Shown piece after piece: positions 6,953-54,138 of a DNA stretch of 64,000 nt. The notes under the pieces are model-generated. The model saw only the letters and a program-made list of their open reading frames with translations, searched no databases and was not told where the DNA came from. Where the stretch lies: the sequence record OP778609, one strand, 5' to 3'. The stretch comes from Escherichia phage A73. Every line of letters starts with the position of its first letter. Position 1 is the stretch's first letter. The position numbers were made by a program, and so were the translations under genes.

Positions 6953-7771
6953 ATGGCCTATCGTAAATTTGACCCACTAATCATTTATGAAGTTGTCCCA
7001 ATGAGTGTCTCCAATCCTCATGGTTTGCAATCACCTACTCCACTTGACCATAAGACAATGATCAGGAATGCAGAGTACACCTTAAGAGATCTTGAGAACG
7101 AAGAGATTGAAAGTGCTGTGCATGGATTGAAAGACCTGATCCGTGAACTTGATACGGATGATTCTGTTCAAGAATATATTGAAAAGTCAGAGGCGCTAAT
7201 CACGAAGTTTCATGAGTACCGCACTAAGGTATCGCGTATTCTTGATGAAGCTTTTGATCCTTCATCAAAAGACCCGATAAATGATGACAAGGCAATAGCC
7301 TTACTCAGCCAAATAGCTGACGCTACTGACAGCATGGACCCTGGTTTTGTAAGGGCTGATCATACCTGTGTAGATCAGTTTCCTTTAGCCTATCTTAAAT
7401 CCAAAAAAGCATTTGGTAGTCTGGCTTTTGTCTGGGAGTATGAGAAAGATTCCCTTACTCGTTACATCAATCGGGTAGGTAAGAAAGATACTTCAGTTAC
7501 GTTAAATATCTTTTGTGATGGTTCCTTGATGGTCCATAACAACTGGACAAAAGAGAGCATCCTCTTTGGTAAAGAAAGAGATCAGAAATTTAAACTGGTA
7601 AACTATATCCGTTTCGCAACAGAGGATAGTAAAATGGGTAAGTCATTTAAAGAGGAGGACTTTAAAACTTTCTTTGAGGATTGGCTTTCCCCAACAGAAG
7701 AAGAGATCCAACTCTTCAAGGCTGTAAATGGGGATGTTTCATTTGACCTGTACACACTCTTTAACGAGTGA
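6953..7771 (+). CDS. hypothetical protein (272 aa)
   Basis: ATG with CAGGAG RBS. Confidence 0.6.
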   Translation: MAYRKFDPLIIYEVVPMSVSNPHGLQSPTPLDHKTMIRNAEYTLRDLENEEIESAVHGLKDLIRELDTDDSVQEYIEKSEALITKFHEYRTKVSRILDEAFDPSSKDPINDDKAIALLSQIADATDSMDPGFVRADHTCVDQFPLAYLKSKKAFGSLAFVWEYEKDSLTRYINRVGKKDTSVTLNIFCDGSLMVHNNWTKESILFGKERDQKFKLVNYIRFATEDSKMGKSFKEEDFKTFFEDWLSPTEEEIQLFKAVNGDVSFDLYTLFNE

Positions 7772-7887
7772 TATTTGTTTGCTAAAACAAATTCAGATTT
7801 CAGATTCAAAATCTATTTGAGATATTTCCCTGTGATATTTGTTTCATGGGGAATTTTCAGATTTCAATTTGAAATTCTATTTGAGAT
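7768..7887. repeat. two imperfect ~57-bp direct repeats
   Basis: GTGATATTTGTTT..ATTCAGATTTCA..CTATTTGAGATA at 7768-7825 and 7832-7887. Confidence 0.7.
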
Positions 7888-8067
7888 AAATTTAAGACTC
7901 TTGCCACCGTGTTACATCCATACTGTTTCATTCCTACATACCCCGCACCACTAGAACAACTAAGCTGATGCCTCGCTTACAGACACATCCTCCAGATTCA
8001 ATACGTTACTGTTCCAGTGTACATACGACACAAAGCAAACATACGACACCAGTGACCAAAATAATTT

Positions 8068-8235
8068 GAGAACTTGAGGGGTTTTTCATTTTTTAGATCG
8101 TAACCTGAAAGTTGTGAACGAGAACTTGAGAGGTTTTTCGATAGAGAAATTAGGAACTTGAGAGGTTTTTCATTTTTAAGTTTGCATTTGAAATTGAGAA
8201 CTTGAGCTACAGGCCAGATACTTGAGGGGTTTTTC
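8068..8235. repeat. five copies of 18-20 bp motif GAGAACTTGAGRGGTTTTTC
   Basis: copies at about 8068, 8120, 8153, 8196 (half copy), 8217. Confidence 0.7.
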
Positions 8236-8568
8236 AAATTTCAGTTTCATTTCAAAATTTAAAAATTTTTTATATGCACAAAAATATAGGGGTTGTCAAG
8301 GTCTTTGATAAGAAATTTTTCAGGGGGTGAGAATTATTCTCATTTTCAGAATAGCAGGCAGGGGTGGTGATTGCTTCGTGAAACCGTCCTCATCACCATG
8401 AATACATAATATCACCATTCTTGATCCGAAAGCAAGAACATTTTAAAAATATTTTTCGGTAAATTTTGGGCGAGCTACCGGCGATCCACCTTACAACCTG
8501 GCGGCGATGCCTGGTATGTTAGCCCCGCCTTTACGCCGTGGGGATGGCGATTGTTTTCCTATGCAGGT

Positions 8569-8597
8569 AGTATGGCCCCTGGCGGGGCCGTTGTCAA
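8569..8597 (-). promoter_or_regulatory. candidate promoter TTGACA-17-CATACT reading leftward into ORF-free GC-rich region
   Basis: hexamers on minus strand immediately after stop of ORF 8600-8884; spacer also forms GGCCCC/GGGGCC hairpin, so may instead be a terminator-like structure. Confidence 0.3.
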
Positions 8598-8599
8598 CA

Positions 8600-8884
8600 T
8601 TATTTTTTATTTTCTTGCCAGGAAAGAACGCCTAACCAAAAATGCACGTTGCCCCGAGCGTCCTGCGGTATCTTGCTTTCTTTACCGCCACCACACGCCC
8701 AAAGATAACCATCGGTAAACGTATCAAGGTAGTCCATATCTTCCACCTTTCGATCCGCCAGGTTAAGGATAGTATTAACGTCTAAGCCTGTTGCGCTTGC
8801 TAACTGGTAGACCGTGCCGCCTTGCCAGCCTAACGAGTGCATAAGATGCAAAGTAGTAGTAGTAGCAGTAGTGATGGTAGTCAT
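8600..8884 (-). CDS. hypothetical protein (94 aa), GC-rich moron-like gene
   Basis: only minus-strand ORF inside the + block; Thr-rich N-terminus; visibly higher GC than neighbours; own promoter. Confidence 0.5.
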   Translation of the reverse strand: MTTITTATTTTLHLMHSLGWQGGTVYQLASATGLDVNTILNLADRKVEDMDYLDTFTDGYLWACGGGKESKIPQDARGNVHFWLGVLSWQENKK

Positions 8885-8935
8885 GGTGTCGCCCTTTCTT
8901 CTGTTGTTGTGCGCCCTGGTTGGCGCGGTAAAAAG

Positions 8936-8964
8936 ACTATAAATGATCTTCCTTTATATGGCAA
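8936..8964 (-). promoter_or_regulatory. sigma70-type promoter TTGCCA-17-TATAGT for ORF 8600-8884
   Basis: minus-strand hexamers, divergent from + promoter at 8999. Confidence 0.5.
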
Positions 8965-8998
8965 GGAAAAAGAAAATTAAAAAAGATTGAAAATAATG

Positions 8999-9027
8999 TT
9001 GACGTGGTGAATCTGGTAGCGTAGTAT
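8999..9027 (+). promoter_or_regulatory. sigma70-type promoter TTGACG-17-TAGTAT
   Basis: drives ORF 9085. Confidence 0.55.
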
Positions 9028-9084
9028 TCATCTCATCGAACGGCGACATGCCAACAAGTAAACAAATAAAAGGGCAACAACAAA

Positions 9085-9270
9085 ATGAATAAAAGAATTA
9101 CAAACGTAAATCCTGGCGAACGTTTCCAACATGAGGGGCATTTGCACACTGTAGTAAGCAACAAAGAGCATACTGTAAGAGTAAATAGAAATATCTTGCA
9201 ACTTCGCGATCGTTTTGGTATCGTACAGACTTACACTTTCGAAGCAAATAAAACAGTTAAAACTTTCTGA
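9085..9270 (+). CDS. hypothetical small protein (61 aa)
   Basis: ATG with AAAGGG RBS. Confidence 0.5.
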   Translation: MNKRITNVNPGERFQHEGHLHTVVSNKEHTVRVNRNILQLRDRFGIVQTYTFEANKTVKTF

Positions 9271-38867: not shown

Positions 38868-39263
38868 TTATAGGCATTTCACACCATAAATGATCATCAA
38901 TACAACAAGTGTCAGTGTATAGATCAAACTCCCATAAAGTCCATGACTGGTGATTTTAAGCTTTTTCTTAAAGCACATCATTGTACTATAAATTACACCA
39001 GTCCAGTGAATCACTAAAATCGCGGTGGCAATATCTGAAACATTACCCGCCCAAAGCATCAGAGAGTATGAGAGGTACATTGCAAAACCTGATAGCAGGA
39101 ATGTAAACAAATAACCAATTACACTTTTCTTTTTCTGATATACGATTTTATTTTTCATGGTATCGATGTTCAGATTGTAATAGGCAACTGCCACTATCTG
39201 GATAATCAGCCCCAAGATAAAGAAAGAGATCAGTGTAACGTATTCAAAAATTGGTGCAGTCAT
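38868..39263 (-). CDS. integral membrane protein (131 aa, about 4 TM)
   Basis: four hydrophobic segments. Confidence 0.55.
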   Translation of the reverse strand: MTAPIFEYVTLISFFILGLIIQIVAVAYYNLNIDTMKNKIVYQKKKSVIGYLFTFLLSGFAMYLSYSLMLWAGNVSDIATAILVIHWTGVIYSTMMCFKKKLKITSHGLYGSLIYTLTLVVLMIIYGVKCL

Positions 39264-39661
39264 TATAATTTCTCCTCAATAATTTCAGAAATGAGATTCG
39301 AGATCTCGAAAGTTTCTAACTCTTCGACGTGTGACAAGCGCTGGAGGCGCTCGATAACAAAGTCTTTCTTCACAAATACATCCGACAAATGCTCAATGTC
39401 CTGCTTACCACGCATTCCGCTAACCAACTGCTTGTATCGGATGAGTTCAATATACTCCTCTTTAGACATTACTGTCAAGCGTTCATCTGCACAAATATGC
39501 AAAAATACTTGCTTGCTGTCCCAGTCAAATCCTCTGTACACTGCCTCTACTTCACGGCGTGGTGTCCCGCCCAGTGTTACATGACCAACCTCAACAGGGA
39601 TAGATACCTGATCATCAGGTCGGCACTGCTGCAACTCCTCAATCAATTCAGAAACTTTCAT
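39263..39661 (-). CDS. hypothetical protein (132 aa)
   Basis: ATG verified. Confidence 0.5.
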   Translation of the reverse strand: MKVSELIEELQQCRPDDQVSIPVEVGHVTLGGTPRREVEAVYRGFDWDSKQVFLHICADERLTVMSKEEYIELIRYKQLVSGMRGKQDIEHLSDVFVKKDFVIERLQRLSHVEELETFEISNLISEIIEEKL

Positions 39662-39663
39662 AG

Positions 39664-40119
39664 TTACCCCTGCTTAAGCTTGAAAGATTTAAATGCTTCG
39701 ATAAAGTCCATTTCTTTTTGCGTATACTTATGATCGATTGTATCAGCGAAAAGAGGGCAACGACCATCAACCAACTTCACATCCCACAGATGTTGAGGGA
39801 GAATAAATGCAATGGCTGTAAGTGCACCATTCAAAGAATCATTCTCCTCGCAGAAAAATGCGTAAGGAATCTTCTCTATGTTTGGAGCTAAAAATCCTTC
39901 TGCAAAATTAAGCATCTTAGATTGATAGCCTCCGTTCAACAAGATCATTGTTTGGTCTTTGCTTTGCCACTGATCTACAAGGTTGTATCTGTCATCATAT
40001 CGATCGGCATAGGCAAAGCCATAATGACCTACAAGGTTTGCTGCTGCATGTGCTGCTTGGATACCTGCTTGGATTCCCATCATATAGCTGTTTACCAATA
40101 CGTACATCCGAGTTTTCAA
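39664..40119 (-). CDS. hypothetical protein, possible PTH2-like peptidyl-tRNA hydrolase fold (151 aa)
   Basis: N-terminal VLVNSYMMGIQAGIQAAHAA loosely resembles PTH2 motif (..MGKGKIAAQCSHAA); TTG start; weak call. Confidence 0.25.
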   Translation of the reverse strand: MKTRMYVLVNSYMMGIQAGIQAAHAAANLVGHYGFAYADRYDDRYNLVDQWQSKDQTMILLNGGYQSKMLNFAEGFLAPNIEKIPYAFFCEENDSLNGALTAIAFILPQHLWDVKLVDGRCPLFADTIDHKYTQKEMDFIEAFKSFKLKQG

Positions 40120-45385: not shown

Positions 45386-45868
45386 TTAACCTCCTTCATC
45401 TTCAGTTGACCAGTACCCATTAACTTTTTTCCAAAGTCTTTGGTTATCTGATCCCCTGAATCTTTTAGTTGTAGGTTTGTTTTCATCATACTTGCCATCC
45501 ATGATTAAGTCAACGTATTTCTTTATTTCCTCATCTAAGTCTTGAAAAAGATACCCTGTCCACACCATGATATCTTTACTCTCACCAAAGCACGACTTTA
45601 CTTCCTTGATAATTCTTTTTACAACATCAATATTCTCAGGGTCAAGAGGTTCTCCACCCATAATTGACAATCCACTGATAAAATTTCGAGAAAGATCTTT
45701 TTTCAAACTCTCCATATCTTCATCTGTGAATTCTTTCCCATACCTGTATGACCAAGCCTTTTGGTTAAAACAACCCTTACACTTATGACTGCATCCACTA
45801 ACCCAGAGAGAGGTTCTTACCCCCTCTCCATTGATGAAGTCTGTTCTTTCATATCCGCAAATGTTCAA
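45386..45868 (-). CDS. nrdG: anaerobic ribonucleotide reductase activating enzyme (radical SAM)
   Basis: CxxxCxxC (CSHKCKGC); immediately downstream of nrdD; TTG start. Confidence 0.75.
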   Translation of the reverse strand: MNICGYERTDFINGEGVRTSLWVSGCSHKCKGCFNQKAWSYRYGKEFTDEDMESLKKDLSRNFISGLSIMGGEPLDPENIDVVKRIIKEVKSCFGESKDIMVWTGYLFQDLDEEIKKYVDLIMDGKYDENKPTTKRFRGSDNQRLWKKVNGYWSTEDEGG

Positions 45869-47943
45869 ACGTGTTTTTCCCTTTGTAAGACCTCCTGCAT
45901 CTTACCTTTGTTATAAGGTCTTGCATTTGGTGCAGATAAATAACCAGAAACCCTTCGGATTACTGAAATTGTTCCCTCTTCTTTGTTACCGCAACAAGGG
46001 CATTCAAAACCTTTAGCCGTTGCATCGAACTCCCCGCTAAAGTTACATTTAAAGCACTGGTCTACAGGTTGATTAACACCGAAGTAAGGTATGGTTTTAT
46101 AACCGTAATCGATCAACGTTTCAAGTGCCTTCATATTATTTTTCAAGTTTGGCGTTTCAACATAACCAATATTACCGCCTGAACTTATTGTTGCGAAACC
46201 GGATTCATACTTCCACTTAGCGAAAGGATCTGAATGTTCCCAAACAGGTGCATGAAAAGAGTTTGTAAGATAGTCTCGCTTAATGGCTTCTGGATATTTT
46301 TCCTTAAGCTTGGTGGCGAAACGATAACATAAACTCTCAGCGGGTGTTCCGTAGAGGCTAAAGGAAATACGTGAACGCTCTTTAAATTCATCACATTTGA
46401 TTTTCATGTGATTGAGGATCATTACCGCTAAAGCCTTATGCTTTTGCCCCACCATAATATCAACTGCTTCCGATAAGCCTACATATCCAATACTGATCGA
46501 TGCGTACCCGTCATAGAATAACTTACTAATCTTTTCATCAGCACCCAATCTTGCTAAAGCACCCTCCATAAACAGGGTTGGGTTTTGAGATGCTTTCACA
46601 TTCTTGAGTCTATTGACACGAACCATATGCGATTCATATGCGTTTTCCATGTGCTGGTCAAGAAGTGCATAAAAATTACCACCTTTGGCTTTATACTCTG
46701 CCGCAATCAATGGGAGGTTGATCGACACAACACCAAGGTTGAACCTTCCATCATACTTCTCTCCATGTTCTGTCGTAAATTTGGAAAGGAAGCTCCTACA
46801 ACCCATACTTGTAACTTTCCCATCTGAAGATCCAGTAACCTCTTTATTTAATGGCACAGAGATGAAGTCAGGATAGATCCTTTCAACACAGCACTGCATT
46901 GCTATTTGTTTAAGGTCATAATTAACATCACCAGGTTTCAGGTTTACACCATCTTGCAAAAAGAAGACAACCTTCGGAAAAACTGGAGTTACCTTATCCT
47001 TGCCAAGCCCCTCAGTATGGACCTTTAGATAGTTTTTGGTAATCATCCTACCAAACTCTGAAGTTTCAAGACCCATACTGATCGTAATGAAAGGCGATTG
47101 ACCGTTAACACTCATTAAAGTATTAACCTGATAAACCAGAGTCTGCATTGCATCATACACATCTCGGTCTGTCATTTCCATTGCTAAAGATTCATTAGGT
47201 TTTCCGATCTTTTCTAAAAACTCGATATTCTTTTTGTGACTCATCTCAACATATGTTTTCAAACCCTCATCGATATGAGCACATGTTTGTCCTCCGTATT
47301 GACTGGATGCTACAGCCTGAATGATTTGAGTCAGAACTGTTGTTGCAACACCAATCGACTTAGGTTTTTCGATCTTCGCATTTCCAATCTTAAAACCATT
47401 TTCAAGCATGTCCCGATAGTTAACAAGACAACAGTTAGTTAATGGACTAACCAAATAATCCAAGTCGTGAATGTGACCATAACCTTCATTGTGCCAAGCA
47501 GCGAGGTCTTTTGGCAAGATCTGATTAATACTGACATGCTTGCTTAAAATACCTGCCAGCAAGTCCCGATGAGTATTTACCAAATTGCTAGGTTTGTTTG
47601 CATTCTCACGAGTAAATTCTTCAGCCGTTTGATCCAAAAATCCGCTAATATCTGAATAAAGTTTACCTTTGCCTTCACGAACTGAATCCCGATCATGACG
47701 GTATTCAATATAGCATCTGGCAACATCTTGAAGATTTTTCTGACTCATTAAGGTATTCTCAACAACCTTATGAATCTCTTCTACAGATATACGATCTTTA
47801 TCTTCAATCTGACTAACGACTTCAGTAATGAGTTTATCAACATCGGCTTTAGTGCCTGCGGATAAAAGAGCGCCCCGAAGGGCTGCTCCGATCTTATCCG
47901 TGCACAAGGTTTCTTCACGCCCGTCACGTTTTGCAATAATCAA
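45865..47943 (-). CDS. nrdD: anaerobic ribonucleoside-triphosphate reductase (class III)
   Basis: 692 aa; ATP-cone-like N-terminus IAKRDGREE..KI; C-terminal glycyl-radical motif RVSGYL; Cys cluster CFKCN..CPCCG; TTG start after AAGGAGG. Confidence 0.8.
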   Translation of the reverse strand: MIIAKRDGREETLCTDKIGAALRGALLSAGTKADVDKLITEVVSQIEDKDRISVEEIHKVVENTLMSQKNLQDVARCYIEYRHDRDSVREGKGKLYSDISGFLDQTAEEFTRENANKPSNLVNTHRDLLAGILSKHVSINQILPKDLAAWHNEGYGHIHDLDYLVSPLTNCCLVNYRDMLENGFKIGNAKIEKPKSIGVATTVLTQIIQAVASSQYGGQTCAHIDEGLKTYVEMSHKKNIEFLEKIGKPNESLAMEMTDRDVYDAMQTLVYQVNTLMSVNGQSPFITISMGLETSEFGRMITKNYLKVHTEGLGKDKVTPVFPKVVFFLQDGVNLKPGDVNYDLKQIAMQCCVERIYPDFISVPLNKEVTGSSDGKVTSMGCRSFLSKFTTEHGEKYDGRFNLGVVSINLPLIAAEYKAKGGNFYALLDQHMENAYESHMVRVNRLKNVKASQNPTLFMEGALARLGADEKISKLFYDGYASISIGYVGLSEAVDIMVGQKHKALAVMILNHMKIKCDEFKERSRISFSLYGTPAESLCYRFATKLKEKYPEAIKRDYLTNSFHAPVWEHSDPFAKWKYESGFATISSGGNIGYVETPNLKNNMKALETLIDYGYKTIPYFGVNQPVDQCFKCNFSGEFDATAKGFECPCCGNKEEGTISVIRRVSGYLSAPNARPYNKGKMQEVLQREKHV

Positions 47944-51879: not shown

Positions 51880-54138
51880 TCACAATTTGCAAGCACCTGA
51901 TTCGCAACCATCATCCTCTTCATCTTCACCATCGCGAGTTTCTTGATAGTAAACAGTTTTCAAGCCAATCTTGTAAGCATACATCAGGTCACGCAGTACA
52001 ATCTTAATTGGCAGTTTGCCACCTGGATAATCCCAAGGTTTGTAGAAGGTATTGGTCGAGATCGACTGGTCAATAAACTTCTGGATGATAGCCATCAGGT
52101 TAAGATAAGCTGTCGGTCCGTTCATATCCCATTTGTACTCGTACACCACACCTTCCTCACCAACACCAGGAACCAGCGTCGGAAGCATACCCGCAGGTGA
52201 CTTCTTAAACGTCACCGGACCACGAGGAGGTTCAATCCCGTTGGTAGAGTTGGTGATCTGGCTTGATGTTTCACAAGGCATCATTGTGGACAACGTTGAG
52301 TTACGTAATCCGTGCAATGCGATATCCAGACGCAAACTTTCCCAATCTTGTTGCAATTCTGCGGTATGCAACTGATCAACTTCTTTCTTGTAGCGATCGA
52401 TAGGTAAGATGCCACGAGAATAAGATGTTTGATCGTACCACTCACAAGAACCACGCTCTTTTGCCAACTGAACAGAAGCTTTCAGCAGGTAGAACTGGAA
52501 TGCTTCCGCGAGTTTATGAACTTCATTGGCAGCTTCTGGCGAACTATATTTGAGTCCACGTTTAGCTAAGTAATACGCCAAGTTAGTCCAGCCAATACCC
52601 AAAGTACGACGCAGTAACGTTTTCTCTGCTGCAAGAACAGGGTAGTTCTGATAATCAAGCAGGTTATCAAGAGCACGTACCGTGATCATAACAGGTTCTT
52701 CTAAATCTTCAAGCTTCTCGATCTTCCCGAGGTTGATTGCTGATAAAGTACACAGTGCAACTTCACCAGAATCTTTCGGGTCCTTAATGTTATTGATCGG
52801 GGCCGTAGGTAATGCAATTTCCATACACAGATTAGACTGCTTAATCGGAGCCACATCAGGAAGGAACGGACTGTTGCTATTGCAGTGGTCAACGTTCTGA
52901 ATATAAATACGACCTGTCTGGCTACGTTCTTGAGCTAAACGAGTGAAAGCATCCGTCGCTTCAAGCTCTTTGCGAGGAATGGAAGGGTCTGCTTCCAATT
53001 TCTCATACAGTTCTGCAAATGCTTCTTGATCCGAGAAGAAGTGTTTATACAGATCGCCGTTTGCTACGTTTGGATGGAAGAAACTGATCTTGCCACCTTT
53101 CTGTAAACGAGTATAGAAGAACTTGTTGATCTGAACACCATAGTCAACATGTCGTGCACGGGTGCTTTCAGTACCACGGTTGTTCTTCATTACGATCAGA
53201 TTTTCAAAGTCCCAGTGCCAAATCGGGTAGAAGTAGTTAGCTGAAGCTTTACGCAGACCACCTTGAGATGCCCAACCTAAAGATTCTTGATACATTCGAA
53301 CAATGCCGACCGTACCTGCATGTTTAACTTCCCCGCCGCGAATAGGAGCGTCCTGTCCACGAATAGCACCAAAGTTCAAACCGATACCTGCTCGCTGTGC
53401 TGCATACTTACCTTGTGCTTCAACTGCGGCAAAGATCTGGTTAATATCATCACCAGATTCAATCAGTACACAAGAACTGAATTGGCGAGTCGGAGTTCGT
53501 ACACCACCCATAATCGGAGTAGGCAGAGAAACCTTCATGGTAGAAACCATATTGTACAGATCAATCACTTTTTGTAGACGCTTCTTAGGATCTTCTTTAC
53601 TCATCAAGCACATTGCGATCAGCATCAGTGCTGTCTGAGGAGATTCAAAGATTTCACCTGTTACACGATCCTTGACCAGATATTTATCTTCGTACTGACG
53701 CATAGCTGCGTAAGTGTAATCAAAATCACGGTCATGATCGATAACTGTATCTAAAAATTCAATCTCTTCTTTCGTGTAATCTGAAATCAGATGTTCATCG
53801 TATTTACCGCGAGCCACAGTCATAAGAATGTGAGCGTACAGTGGACGAGGTTCAAAACCACCATAAGCCTGCTTACGCAGTTTAAACAGAAGCAGACGTG
53901 CTGCTGGATACTGATAGTTTGGACTTTCTACACTAATTAGGTCCGCTGCGGACTTGATCAGGGTATCGTGGATCGCGTCTGTTTCTACACCATCATACAT
54001 CTGAATCTGAGATTTCATCAGGATATCAGAAGGACTTACATCATTAACCCCTTCACAAGACCAAACTACAACACGGTTGATTTTCTCAGCTTCGAATTTC
54101 TCTACAGAACCATTACGCTTACGAACAGTAATACCCAA
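51880..54138 (-). CDS. nrdA: ribonucleotide reductase class Ia alpha subunit
   Basis: 752 aa; ATP-cone N-terminus VRKRNGSVEKFEAEKI; C-terminal Cys pair CESGACKL; TTG start after AAGGAGA. Confidence 0.85.
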   Translation of the reverse strand: MGITVRKRNGSVEKFEAEKINRVVVWSCEGVNDVSPSDILMKSQIQMYDGVETDAIHDTLIKSAADLISVESPNYQYPAARLLLFKLRKQAYGGFEPRPLYAHILMTVARGKYDEHLISDYTKEEIEFLDTVIDHDRDFDYTYAAMRQYEDKYLVKDRVTGEIFESPQTALMLIAMCLMSKEDPKKRLQKVIDLYNMVSTMKVSLPTPIMGGVRTPTRQFSSCVLIESGDDINQIFAAVEAQGKYAAQRAGIGLNFGAIRGQDAPIRGGEVKHAGTVGIVRMYQESLGWASQGGLRKASANYFYPIWHWDFENLIVMKNNRGTESTRARHVDYGVQINKFFYTRLQKGGKISFFHPNVANGDLYKHFFSDQEAFAELYEKLEADPSIPRKELEATDAFTRLAQERSQTGRIYIQNVDHCNSNSPFLPDVAPIKQSNLCMEIALPTAPINNIKDPKDSGEVALCTLSAINLGKIEKLEDLEEPVMITVRALDNLLDYQNYPVLAAEKTLLRRTLGIGWTNLAYYLAKRGLKYSSPEAANEVHKLAEAFQFYLLKASVQLAKERGSCEWYDQTSYSRGILPIDRYKKEVDQLHTAELQQDWESLRLDIALHGLRNSTLSTMMPCETSSQITNSTNGIEPPRGPVTFKKSPAGMLPTLVPGVGEEGVVYEYKWDMNGPTAYLNLMAIIQKFIDQSISTNTFYKPWDYPGGKLPIKIVLRDLMYAYKIGLKTVYYQETRDGEDEEDDGCESGACKL

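Follow-up and report, generated by a model that had tools for sequence, protein, structure and literature searches.

A conserved non-coding island in the early region of rV5-like phages: a candidate structured RNA, a Fur-box-like operator and single-locus repeat arrays

Why would a lytic phage keep 829 bp without genes in the middle of its early region? This question is raised by a locus of Escherichia phage A73 (sequence record OP778609), which we analysed within a stretch of 64,000 nucleotides, hereafter the window. The island is free of open reading frames (ORFs) from 7772 to 8600, where no ORF with a family match is found. It lies between the stop codons of a plus-strand gene encoding 272 aa (6953-7771) and a minus-strand gene encoding 94 aa (8600-8884), and is surrounded by a block of small plus-strand early genes. 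Positions 7600-9100 share 94% of their nucleotides with Escherichia phage UPEC06, and their identity to A5-4, A7_1 and W70 is 90-92%; these phages are Vequintavirinae of a group published as Septuagintavirus (PMC11370258). Judging from this identity, the window comes from a Septuagintavirus-like member of Vequintavirinae, a large lytic rV5-like phage of E. coli.

An earlier reading of the letters alone (hereafter the sequence-only reading) described a repeat-rich non-coding island at this place; its features are present there and exceed chance. We propose that the island is a regulatory locus and the source of a non-coding RNA, transcribed early by host RNA polymerase; Fur would probably provide an input, and the repeat arrays would bind protein. 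The case for this proposal as a whole appears evenly balanced, and its RNA and promoter part is likely to be correct. Host RNA polymerase would start at a promoter designated PL, against the surrounding genes, and transcribe a structured RNA of ~100 nt (8562 to about 8463), in which a purine-rich leader would precede a small, probable pseudoknot and a long hairpin with a bulge. Beyond it, one or two more sites that resemble leftward promoters (P3 and P4) would follow. A Fur-type operator, located ~220 nt downstream of PL and overlapping a weak convergent rightward promoter, would mean that Fur, and thus iron status, probably gates transcription across the right half of the island (8293-8600), either by repressing the convergent antisense transcript or by blocking the leftward one. 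Leftward transcription would run into the left half (7768-8292), whose repeats and AT-rich tract may be cis sites for a co-evolved DNA-binding protein.

Comparison with relatives indicates that the island is an old, syntenic and conserved feature. The synteny is kept in phi92, PBES02, phiTE (island at 38,964-39,841), Mydo, KpS8, KB57, 4MG, ABPH49 and KP2025, in the order ~270-aa plus-strand gene, ORF-free stretch of 0.7-1 kb, usually a small minus-strand gene, and more plus-strand genes. The left part of the relatives' islands shows two to four GATATTT directly after the stop codon, then palindromes of the TTTC..GAAA type (the 'A' region), then a variable unique spacer. The right part shows three to five 'B' units and an A/T-rich tract; next come one to five palindromes of the AATGAGAATCATTCTCATT type, a conserved GC-rich element and a promoter.

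The GC-rich core element and its promoter

The GC content of 8463-8600 reaches 58.7%, versus 40.7% for the window, which bears out the GC-rich segment noted by the sequence-only reading. Within this segment lies a conserved structured element of ~100 nt (8463-8562, minus strand), hereafter the core, a candidate RNA supported by BLAST conservation, covariation and a covariance model. The wide conservation of 8463-8562 had been missed, as had the Fur-box-like operator described below. A BLAST search with 8463-8592 gives 75-89% identity in 224-226 phage records of many genera, including Phapecoctavirus, Justusliebigvirus, Seunavirus, Certrevirus and Mydovirus, and most of the phage records listed carry no annotation under the match. 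None of the 100 core positions differs from UPEC06, versus ~10% in both flanks. One loop is 13, 14, 15 or 16 nt long in near-identical phi92-like copies; hence, the core is not a reading frame.

The covariance model built from the alignment has a single match in the window (8463-8569, minus strand) and detects no copy in the rest of UPEC06. A strict core pattern retrieves ~15 further phage contigs from viral and metagenome collections. In 185,579 bacterial and archaeal genomes, the same pattern gives eight matches, all of them chance matches in GC-rich coding DNA, and no host homologue. A scan of Rfam, named as a check by the sequence-only reading, gives no family that reaches the gathering threshold in the window; with the limit relaxed to an E-value of 10, the sole match over the core is Bp1_684, with 14.3 bits versus a threshold of 44. 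ARAGORN found no tRNA or tmRNA.

The core is preceded by the predicted near-consensus early sigma-70 promoter PL (8597-8569, minus strand; TTGACA-17-CATACT, 10/12), which corresponds to the leftward promoter suspected earlier. PL has an A/T-rich upstream tract (8598-8616), and the GC hairpin in its spacer (8575-8590) covaries. In all 31 distinct relatives, a sigma-70-like promoter of at least 9/12 (often 11-12/12) is found on the minus strand before S1, the first helix of the core, at a distance of 18-22 nt (15 nt in one of them). For instance, L011 and L041 have TTGACA-17-TATAAT and the Mydo group has TTGCAA-17-TATATT.

Buttimer et al. (2020; PMC7344957) described a sigma-70-like early promoter class of Certrevirus and Vequintavirinae, AAAA(N4)TGTTGAC(N17)TATAAT. 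PL resembles this class by its A-tract (UP) and TGTTGAC, the signature of Certrevirus early promoters, and by its 17-nt spacer. The class is abundant in the early block of the window: TGTTGAC-N17-19-TANNNT has 12 matches in the window versus 0.59 expected, all of them in the direction of the gene blocks (plus strand as far as ~20 kb, minus strand starting at ~33 kb). PL differs from the other copies in being the one that opposes the surrounding genes and has no ORF behind it, and its spacer is a covarying GC hairpin. The conservation of the GC-rich part, its compensatory changes and its fixed distance from a conserved promoter speak for the structured non-coding RNA that the sequence-only reading had put forward as an idea.

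Read on the minus strand from near 8562, the core consists of a purine-rich leader (AGGAAAAC in the window, AGAAGAGGAAAC in most relatives), the predicted helices S1, S2 and H3, and a conserved 3' sequence (AUCGCCGGUAGCUCG). S1 would pair CGCC with GGCG (8549-8546 with 8537-8534, minus strand). S2 would pair CCCC within the S1 loop with a downstream GGGG (8543-8540 with 8526-8523, minus strand), and S1 and S2 together possibly form an H-type pseudoknot with an A-rich third loop. H3 (8518-8494, minus strand) is a long hairpin of 9-10 bp with a one-nucleotide bulge.

Pairs were counted on 35 distinct sequences: 91% of the cells are paired, a share that falls to 25-47% if the partners are slid. 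For covariation, the score is 0.116 versus 0.046 in shuffles, and none of 500 shuffles reaches 0.116, a control that overstates significance since the sequences are related. In H3, pair 53:75 is A-U in 19 sequences and G-C in 13, and pair 56:73 is C-G in 29, G-C in 4 and G-U in 2. In S2, pair 30:44 is C-G in 32 sequences and A-U in three related ones (CCCC:GGGG becoming CCAA:UUGG), and pair 28:46 includes one U.G (in 4MG), which is legal on the minus strand only. Moreover, H3 is replaced by unrelated hairpin-forming sequences in ABPH49, in L035/L047 and in a 'type 2' allele, and L060 shows a compensatory change from GAU:AUC to GGU:ACC. These compensatory changes support the predicted long hairpin and, weakly, the pseudoknot.

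Because of the upstream promoters, the U.G pair of 4MG and the HNH gene that follows the element on the minus strand in phage Ro1, we infer that an RNA would be made from the minus strand. Two other pairings were rejected. The first joins GCCCCGCC (8522-8529) and GGCGGGGC (8582-8589), which the sequence-only reading had taken for inverted repeats. Both 8-mers exist, but their pairing is not conserved among relatives and joins two unrelated modules: comparison with the relatives assigns GCCCCGCC to the putative RNA helix and GGCGGGGC to the lineage-specific hairpin of the promoter spacer. The second joins the variable GGUNNAUCG segment and a 5' CCACC, and its variation is uncompensated in the alignment.

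A second candidate leftward RNA segment (8345-8399, minus strand) contains the hairpin UGGUGAU..AUCACCA. In its outer helix, AUrGCG:CGYUAU, G.U pairs are kept on the minus strand only, as read by eye from the alignment. Its minimum free energy (MFE) is unexceptional, the z-scores of all folds ranging from -0.6 to +0.1.

Several records show exchanges of the core. Raoultella phage Ro1 (L017 6290-7130) harbors a type-2 and a type-1 core allele, each with its own leftward promoter, which flank an ORF encoding an HNH homing endonuclease (PHROG 953, E = 8e-79). This ORF has its own ribosome-binding site and lies on the minus strand, after a core element. In A5-4 (L002 3874-3945), a type-2 middle part takes the place of type 1 within lineage-typical flanks, and type 1 is also replaced by it in the metagenome contig L060. 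This pattern suggests endonuclease-driven allele exchange at the highly conserved core sequence.

By its size, predicted structure, lack of annotation and own promoter, the core candidate resembles phage small RNAs (sRNAs) such as the pseudo-ToxI of phiTE, T4 RNA C/D, the P1/P7 C4 RNA and prophage sRNAs. It differs from them by the absence of any Rfam match up to an E-value of 10 and of a terminator on the core. It is also unlike terminator-bounded sRNAs of the Hfq type, as it has no GC hairpin and U-run at its 3' end. The island is not the pseudo-ToxI locus, which lies at 106,714-106,772 in phiTE, 68 kb from the island of that phage, and which is made of 36-nt tandem repeats, whereas the B copies described below are dispersed.

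Fur-box-like operators and further promoters

The Fur box of E. coli has a 19-bp consensus, GATAATGATAATCATTATC, and a 7-1-7 form, TGATAATnATTATCA. The window carries a perfect 7-1-7 palindrome, TGAGAATtATTCTCA (8328-8342), which matches the 19-bp consensus at 15/19 positions. This palindrome is invariant in four close relatives and unique in the genome equivalent made of the window and the rest of UPEC06. When 35 related loci are taken together, the 12.25 kb beside the core contain 154 matches of at least 14/19 and the other 289 kb contain 58, which is a 63-fold enrichment in density. Relatives have one to five boxes (four or five in phi92-like phages) and match the consensus up to 16/19, and KP2025 carries the exact core of the box, TGATAATCATTAT. 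Many matches form pairs with a 6-bp shift, as seen in phi92, the Mydo group, 4MG and L037, and the footprinted Fur clusters of E. coli consist of sites that overlap in this way (PMC2189734). On this evidence, binding by Fur seems somewhat probable. A literature search gave no report of Fur boxes in the genomes of virulent phages, the only case being the sit operon of temperate lambdoid phages.

The window also encodes NrdD-like anaerobic and NrdA-like aerobic large subunits of ribonucleotide reductase (45865-47943 and 51880-54138, minus strand). Both are iron-dependent enzyme classes, and they are a possible reason for an iron-responsive input.

Three further candidate promoters surround the operator. 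P3 (8435-8406, minus strand; TTGCTT-18-TATTAT, 8/12) has counterparts at a fixed offset after the core in 22 of 30 distinct relatives (TTGCAA-17-TATATT, TTGATC-16-TATTAT or a close variant). P4 (8311-8283, minus strand; TTATCA-17-TATATT, 9/12), a prediction only, overlaps a TTGACA at 8299-8294, and equivalent leftward sites exist in Mydo (TTGACT-17-GATACT with TG) and PBES02. Islands with four leftward sigma-70-like sites are those of Mydo (L021 814-1332, ~160 nt apart) and PBES02 (L006 2157-2855), where the flanking genes are on the other strand. The candidate rightward promoter (8305-8334, plus strand; TTGATA-18-GAGAAT, 9/12) is a weak prediction with its -10 inside the Fur-like box. Most genera have a counterpart, TTGAAT-18-CAGAAT (8/12), whose spacer is filled by the box; an unbiased best-match search singled out no site consistently.

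In 28 of 36 related loci, a GTAAA-N5-GTAAA direct repeat follows the core at a distance of exactly 14 nt and precedes the -35 of P3 by 3-4 nt (for instance L006 2700-2716, L021 ~1180-1196 and L005 ~2125-2141). This repeat, which matches the consensus of the response regulator CpxR, is missing in the window (corresponding place ~8440-8462), UPEC06 and A5-4, in ABPH49, in L039/L042/L050 and in L060.

The region recalls the Fur-repressed promoters of E. coli (ryhB, fhuF, iucA) in several respects: a 7-1-7 inverted repeat close to TGATAATnATTATCA and, in the relatives, overlapping sites 6 bp apart over 30-110 bp that overlap promoter-like hexamers, as in footprinted Fur regions (PMC2189734). As in ryhB, the Fur-type site stands in front of a putative non-coding transcript. 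The region differs from these promoters in belonging to a virulent phage and in having here one box and a weak overlapped promoter, and nothing downstream resembles RyhB or an iron gene. By analogy, it would combine the behaviour of a Fur-repressed promoter region with that of a phage sRNA gene, in an origin-like layout, membership being established for none of these classes.

Several points weigh against an RNA locus under Fur control. Concerning transcription, a literature search found no usable transcriptome or transcript record for this subfamily. Within the window, P3 with 8/12 fits the consensus weakly, as do P4 and the rightward promoter with 9/12 each, and the region contains 7 promoter-like sites versus 5.8 in shuffles, which is no excess. 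Neither in the window nor in Mydo is there an intrinsic terminator behind the core on the minus strand, and the only hairpin downstream of the core in PBES02 (2690-2674) has no real U-run. Concerning structure, S1 is invariant except for two misaligned rows and is therefore neutral on pairing, and the support for S2 amounts to one compensatory event (in three related sequences) and one wobble pair. Folding of single sequences by MFE tools, which cannot model pseudoknots, gives no advantage over shuffles (minus strand, z = -0.5; plus strand, z = +0.1). Furthermore, covariation of Watson-Crick pairs would look the same in RNA and in hairpins of single-stranded DNA, and it does not tell the two strands apart. 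Concerning Fur, the window has a single box, scoring on both strands; the other parts of its 64 kb contain 7 matches of at least 14/19, and the palindrome is assigned to Fur by consensus only.

Repeat arrays and rival explanations

The left half of the island contains two families of repeats. The first corresponds to the two imperfect 57-bp direct repeats of the sequence-only reading, A1 (7768-7824) and A2 (7832-7888). These copies of 57 nt with a 64-nt period are identical at 44/57 positions, with 0 matches expected in shuffles. A1 consists of GTGATATTTGTTT, a diverged segment of 11 nt and TTCAGATTTCAGATTCAAAATCTATTTGAGATA; A2 contains the 7-1-7 palindrome ATTTCAAtTTGAAAT. The two copies share the exact 13-mer GTGATATTTGTTT and a 33-mer at 88% identity. 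Orthologous GATATTT (two to four copies) and TTTC..GAAA palindromes occupy the same place in PBES02, 4MG, Mydo, ABPH49 and phi92. Among four close relatives, 1 of 64 columns is variable in A2 versus 18% in the next spacer. This unique C-rich spacer (7896-8062), with a GC skew of -0.27 to -0.31, is the least conserved part of the island: 30 of its 168 columns are variable among close relatives, and it is unalignable between genera.

The second family, B, is built on the motif GAACTTGAGRGGTTTTTC, found in four full copies (8070, 8122, 8154 and 8218) versus 0.15 expected. Five copies had been counted in the sequence-only reading; four of them are full and the fifth is only a half copy, which makes 4.5. 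The B repeats, all on the plus strand, are B1 (8068-8087; GAGAACTTGAGGGGTTTTTC), B2 (8120-8139), B3 (8152-8171), the half copy (8196-8206; GAGAACTTGAG then CTACAG) and B4 (8216-8235; AGATACTTGAGGGGTTTTTC). They are dispersed, with spacings of 52, 32, 44 and 20 nt, the first two corresponding to 4.95 and 3.05 helical turns. Among four close relatives, 4 of 91 columns are variable within the motifs versus 11 of 84 between them. An AT-rich tract with 20% GC (8238-8292) follows.

Both repeat families and the palindrome are confined to the island within the window and the remaining 84 kb of UPEC06; two B-like matches with three mismatches inside UPEC06 genes look like chance. Since they are unique to one locus, the A and B motifs are single-locus cis elements and not a genome-wide promoter or terminator motif. 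Moreover, the arrays have orthologues of shifted sequence in other genera, and the repeat motifs are in this sense conserved in relatives. The B units there are homologous, the motif being altered in all copies together (GGTTCTCGATCGGTTTTTC..AGATCGTATT versus GAGAACTTGAGGGGTTTTTC..AGATCGTAAC), and a half B unit followed by (G/C)TACAG is common to PBES02 (GTACAG) and the window (CTACAG). The A and B repeats may well be protein-binding sites, a claim for and against which we see equal grounds.

B units of Mydo, 4MG, ABPH49 and PBES02 (L021, L024, L025 and L006) have two GATC sites per unit of ~65-75 nt and an internal inverted repeat with a partner sequence that changes from unit to unit (TCTCGAT..ATCGAGA; CGATCGGT..ACCGATCG). 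Those of Mydo, 4MG and ABPH49, but not of PBES02, also have a GAAAAAATTTTT end. In the window lineage, B units have neither paired GATC sites nor the internal inverted repeat or the GAAAAAATTTTT end.

What the repeats bind is where the main rival comes in, at least for the left half. The island, or this half of it, would be a replication origin, an idea that the sequence-only reading also raised and that we regard as a real but lesser possibility, compatible with the RNA reading. The B (and A) repeats would be iterons for an initiator and the 20%-GC tract an unwinding element, the transcripts from PL, P3 and P4 would activate replication or serve as its primers, on the model of T4 oriE/oriF or the T7 primary origin, and a Fur-controlled antisense transcript could modulate the process like RNA I at ColE1. 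An iteron array should have three or more direct repeats of ~17-22 bp next to an AT-rich element, and the island has 4.5 direct repeats of 18-20 bp, three of them at near-integral numbers of helical turns, beside a 55-bp tract with 20% GC. Promoter-like sites point into the array in three lineages. The motifs occur at one locus per genome and change concertedly between genera, as would be the case for co-evolution with a binding protein. Furthermore, skew analysis failed to locate the origin of rV5-like phages (PMC3606486).

However, no initiator is recognised among the neighbouring proteins (Pfam, PDB, PHROG), the 272-aa protein being without a family, and the DNA polymerase and helicase genes of UPEC06 are 16-30 kb away. 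The other spacings of the window (4.19 and 1.9 turns) are unphased, as are the arrays of other genera. GATC sites, which are abundant in the arrays of Mydo, 4MG, PBES02 and ABPH49 and there favour an origin, are not clustered in the island of the window (3 sites in 829 bp). The window as a whole contains 397 GATC in 64 kb (6.2 per kb) versus ~3.9 per kb expected for equal base frequencies. An origin would also leave the Fur operators unexplained.

Origins associated with early promoters are known in lytic phages, namely T4 oriE (RNA_E, iterons), T4 oriF/oriG and the T7 primary origin (tandem promoters, AT-rich region). The island resembles them by its host-type early promoters without a gene behind, its single locus per genome, and a putative non-coding transcript that enters an AT-rich tract and short direct repeats. 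It differs from them by the absence of sequence similarity and of a recognised RepEA/RepEB-like or other initiator, by the highly conserved structured domain of its predicted transcript and by its Fur-like operators.

A bolder proposal, which we consider rather improbable, combines both functions into a hub that senses the state of the host. Operators of host regulators, i.e. Fur in nearly all lineages examined and the CpxR-type GTAAA-N5-GTAAA in most lineages other than that of the window, would gate tandem early promoters making an undescribed family of pseudoknot RNAs. The transcripts would enter the iteron and AT-rich array and thus couple iron or envelope status to the start of replication.

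The core could alternatively be kept as DNA, as a protein-binding site or a bidirectional terminator, in an island that is a transcriptional boundary between the plus-strand operon and the minus-strand gene. Hairpins, T-runs and opposing promoters would stop read-through there, and the repeats would stem from slippage or recombination without a specific partner. The island does lie where plus- and minus-strand transcription converge, plus-strand terminator-like hairpins are found at 8534-8549 and at the gene end (7755-7770), the GC hairpin of the PL spacer covaries as a transcribed hairpin would, and the annotators of phiTE marked a terminator inside the island. We nevertheless consider such a boundary quite unlikely: phi92, PBES02 and Mydo lack the T-run that follows 8534-8549, and PBES02 and ABPH49 keep the island with no annotated minus-strand gene. 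A boundary has no need for ~100 nt kept identical while the flanks drift, nor does it explain the fixed-distance promoter of 31 lineages, the Fur boxes or the lower variability of repeats compared with spacers.

It is very unlikely that the island is a packaging (pac) region whose repeats are bound by the small terminase. The relatives rV5 and phiTE have circularly permuted, terminally redundant genomes packaged by the headful mechanism (PMC3475682, PMC3606486), which implies a pac site somewhere. The repeat arrays, and the GATC-rich units of some genera, recall the pac site of P1, and the GenBank record of vB_EcoM-LTH01 is linearised inside the core, at window position 8475/8476. However, only ~6 of 226 records start at most 2 kb from the island, which is the chance expectation for 145-kb genomes, and we therefore discarded record starts as a sign of a genome end nearby. 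In addition, the terminase gene is ~70 kb away in UPEC06, and the GATC units are absent from the window, where 3 sites in 829 bp do not form a cluster like that of P1.

That the repeat region encodes a protein of 79 aa (ORF 7998-8237, minus strand), as annotated in A5-4 and LTH01, is hardly credible. The ORF is open in the window and free of indels among four relatives. Its start is TTG, it has no PHROG match, and its C-terminal end is not conserved in UPEC06, where the annotated product is shorter and ends ~50 nt earlier. The orthologous arrays of other genera have no conserved ORF, and the conserved columns are DNA motifs, not codon positions. The ORF thus looks like a translation of the repeats, as the sequence-only reading had considered it. 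Least credible of all is the T5-like first-step-transfer or injection-stop element which that reading had suggested, as its likeness, a repeat-rich non-coding stretch among early genes, is superficial, the circular permutation of rV5 and phiTE leaves no fixed first-entering sequence (by inference for this phage), no terminal repeat boundary is seen and the island lies ~9 kb inside the gene block.

Significance, neighbouring genes and minor observations

Phages related to rV5 and phi92 are widely isolated and used in phage-therapy work, and their early regions are annotated nearly entirely as 'hypothetical'. The island is the largest conserved non-coding feature of this early region. Its RNA-like element, near-constant across genera, its Fur-matching operators and its single-locus repeat arrays are not annotated in the records examined. 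The core element is a concrete new feature for annotation in more than 200 genomes. If Fur binds, the island would be a clear example of a host metal regulator built into the early programme of a strictly lytic phage. If the repeats mark an origin, a long-open question for the rV5-like group would become directly testable.

In UPEC06, a divergent transcription switch lies ~9 kb from the island, the genes for helicase and DNA polymerase are at a distance of 16-30 kb and that for terminase at ~70 kb. The proteins neighbouring the island have no Pfam or PDB match and match only PHROGs of unknown function. The upstream protein of 272 aa has distant PHROG matches only, and its AF2 model (pLDDT 37.5) is unusable; a word-based homologue search retrieved one close and eight Mydo-like relatives. 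The 94-aa product of the lone minus-strand flanking gene (8600-8884) belongs to PHROG 19316 (function unknown) and is a homologue of gp224 of phi92. Used as a query for related loci in viral contigs, it gave no confirmed relative, and DNA patterns were used instead.

This gene has its own predicted promoter (8964-8936, minus strand). It is bracketed by an inverted repeat of 24 nt (8593-8616 and 8980-9003, 83% identity), the arms of which are two opposed upstream modules of early promoters (A-tract and AATGTTGAC), the second belonging to a rightward promoter at 8999-9027.

The genome paper of rV5 described a 2.6-kb 'non-coding' box at a convergent gene junction (104,014-106,617; L064 14015-16618). 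The island is not this box, which has other repeats (AACTGTTTACA-like) and no core element. In rV5, the covariance model was applied to positions 90-138 kb, in which the core is absent. Finally, the window contains three tandem paralogous ORFs of ~380-414 aa (26228-29726, minus strand) that match PHROG 4219, 'regulator of chromosome condensation', and have RCC1-like repeats.

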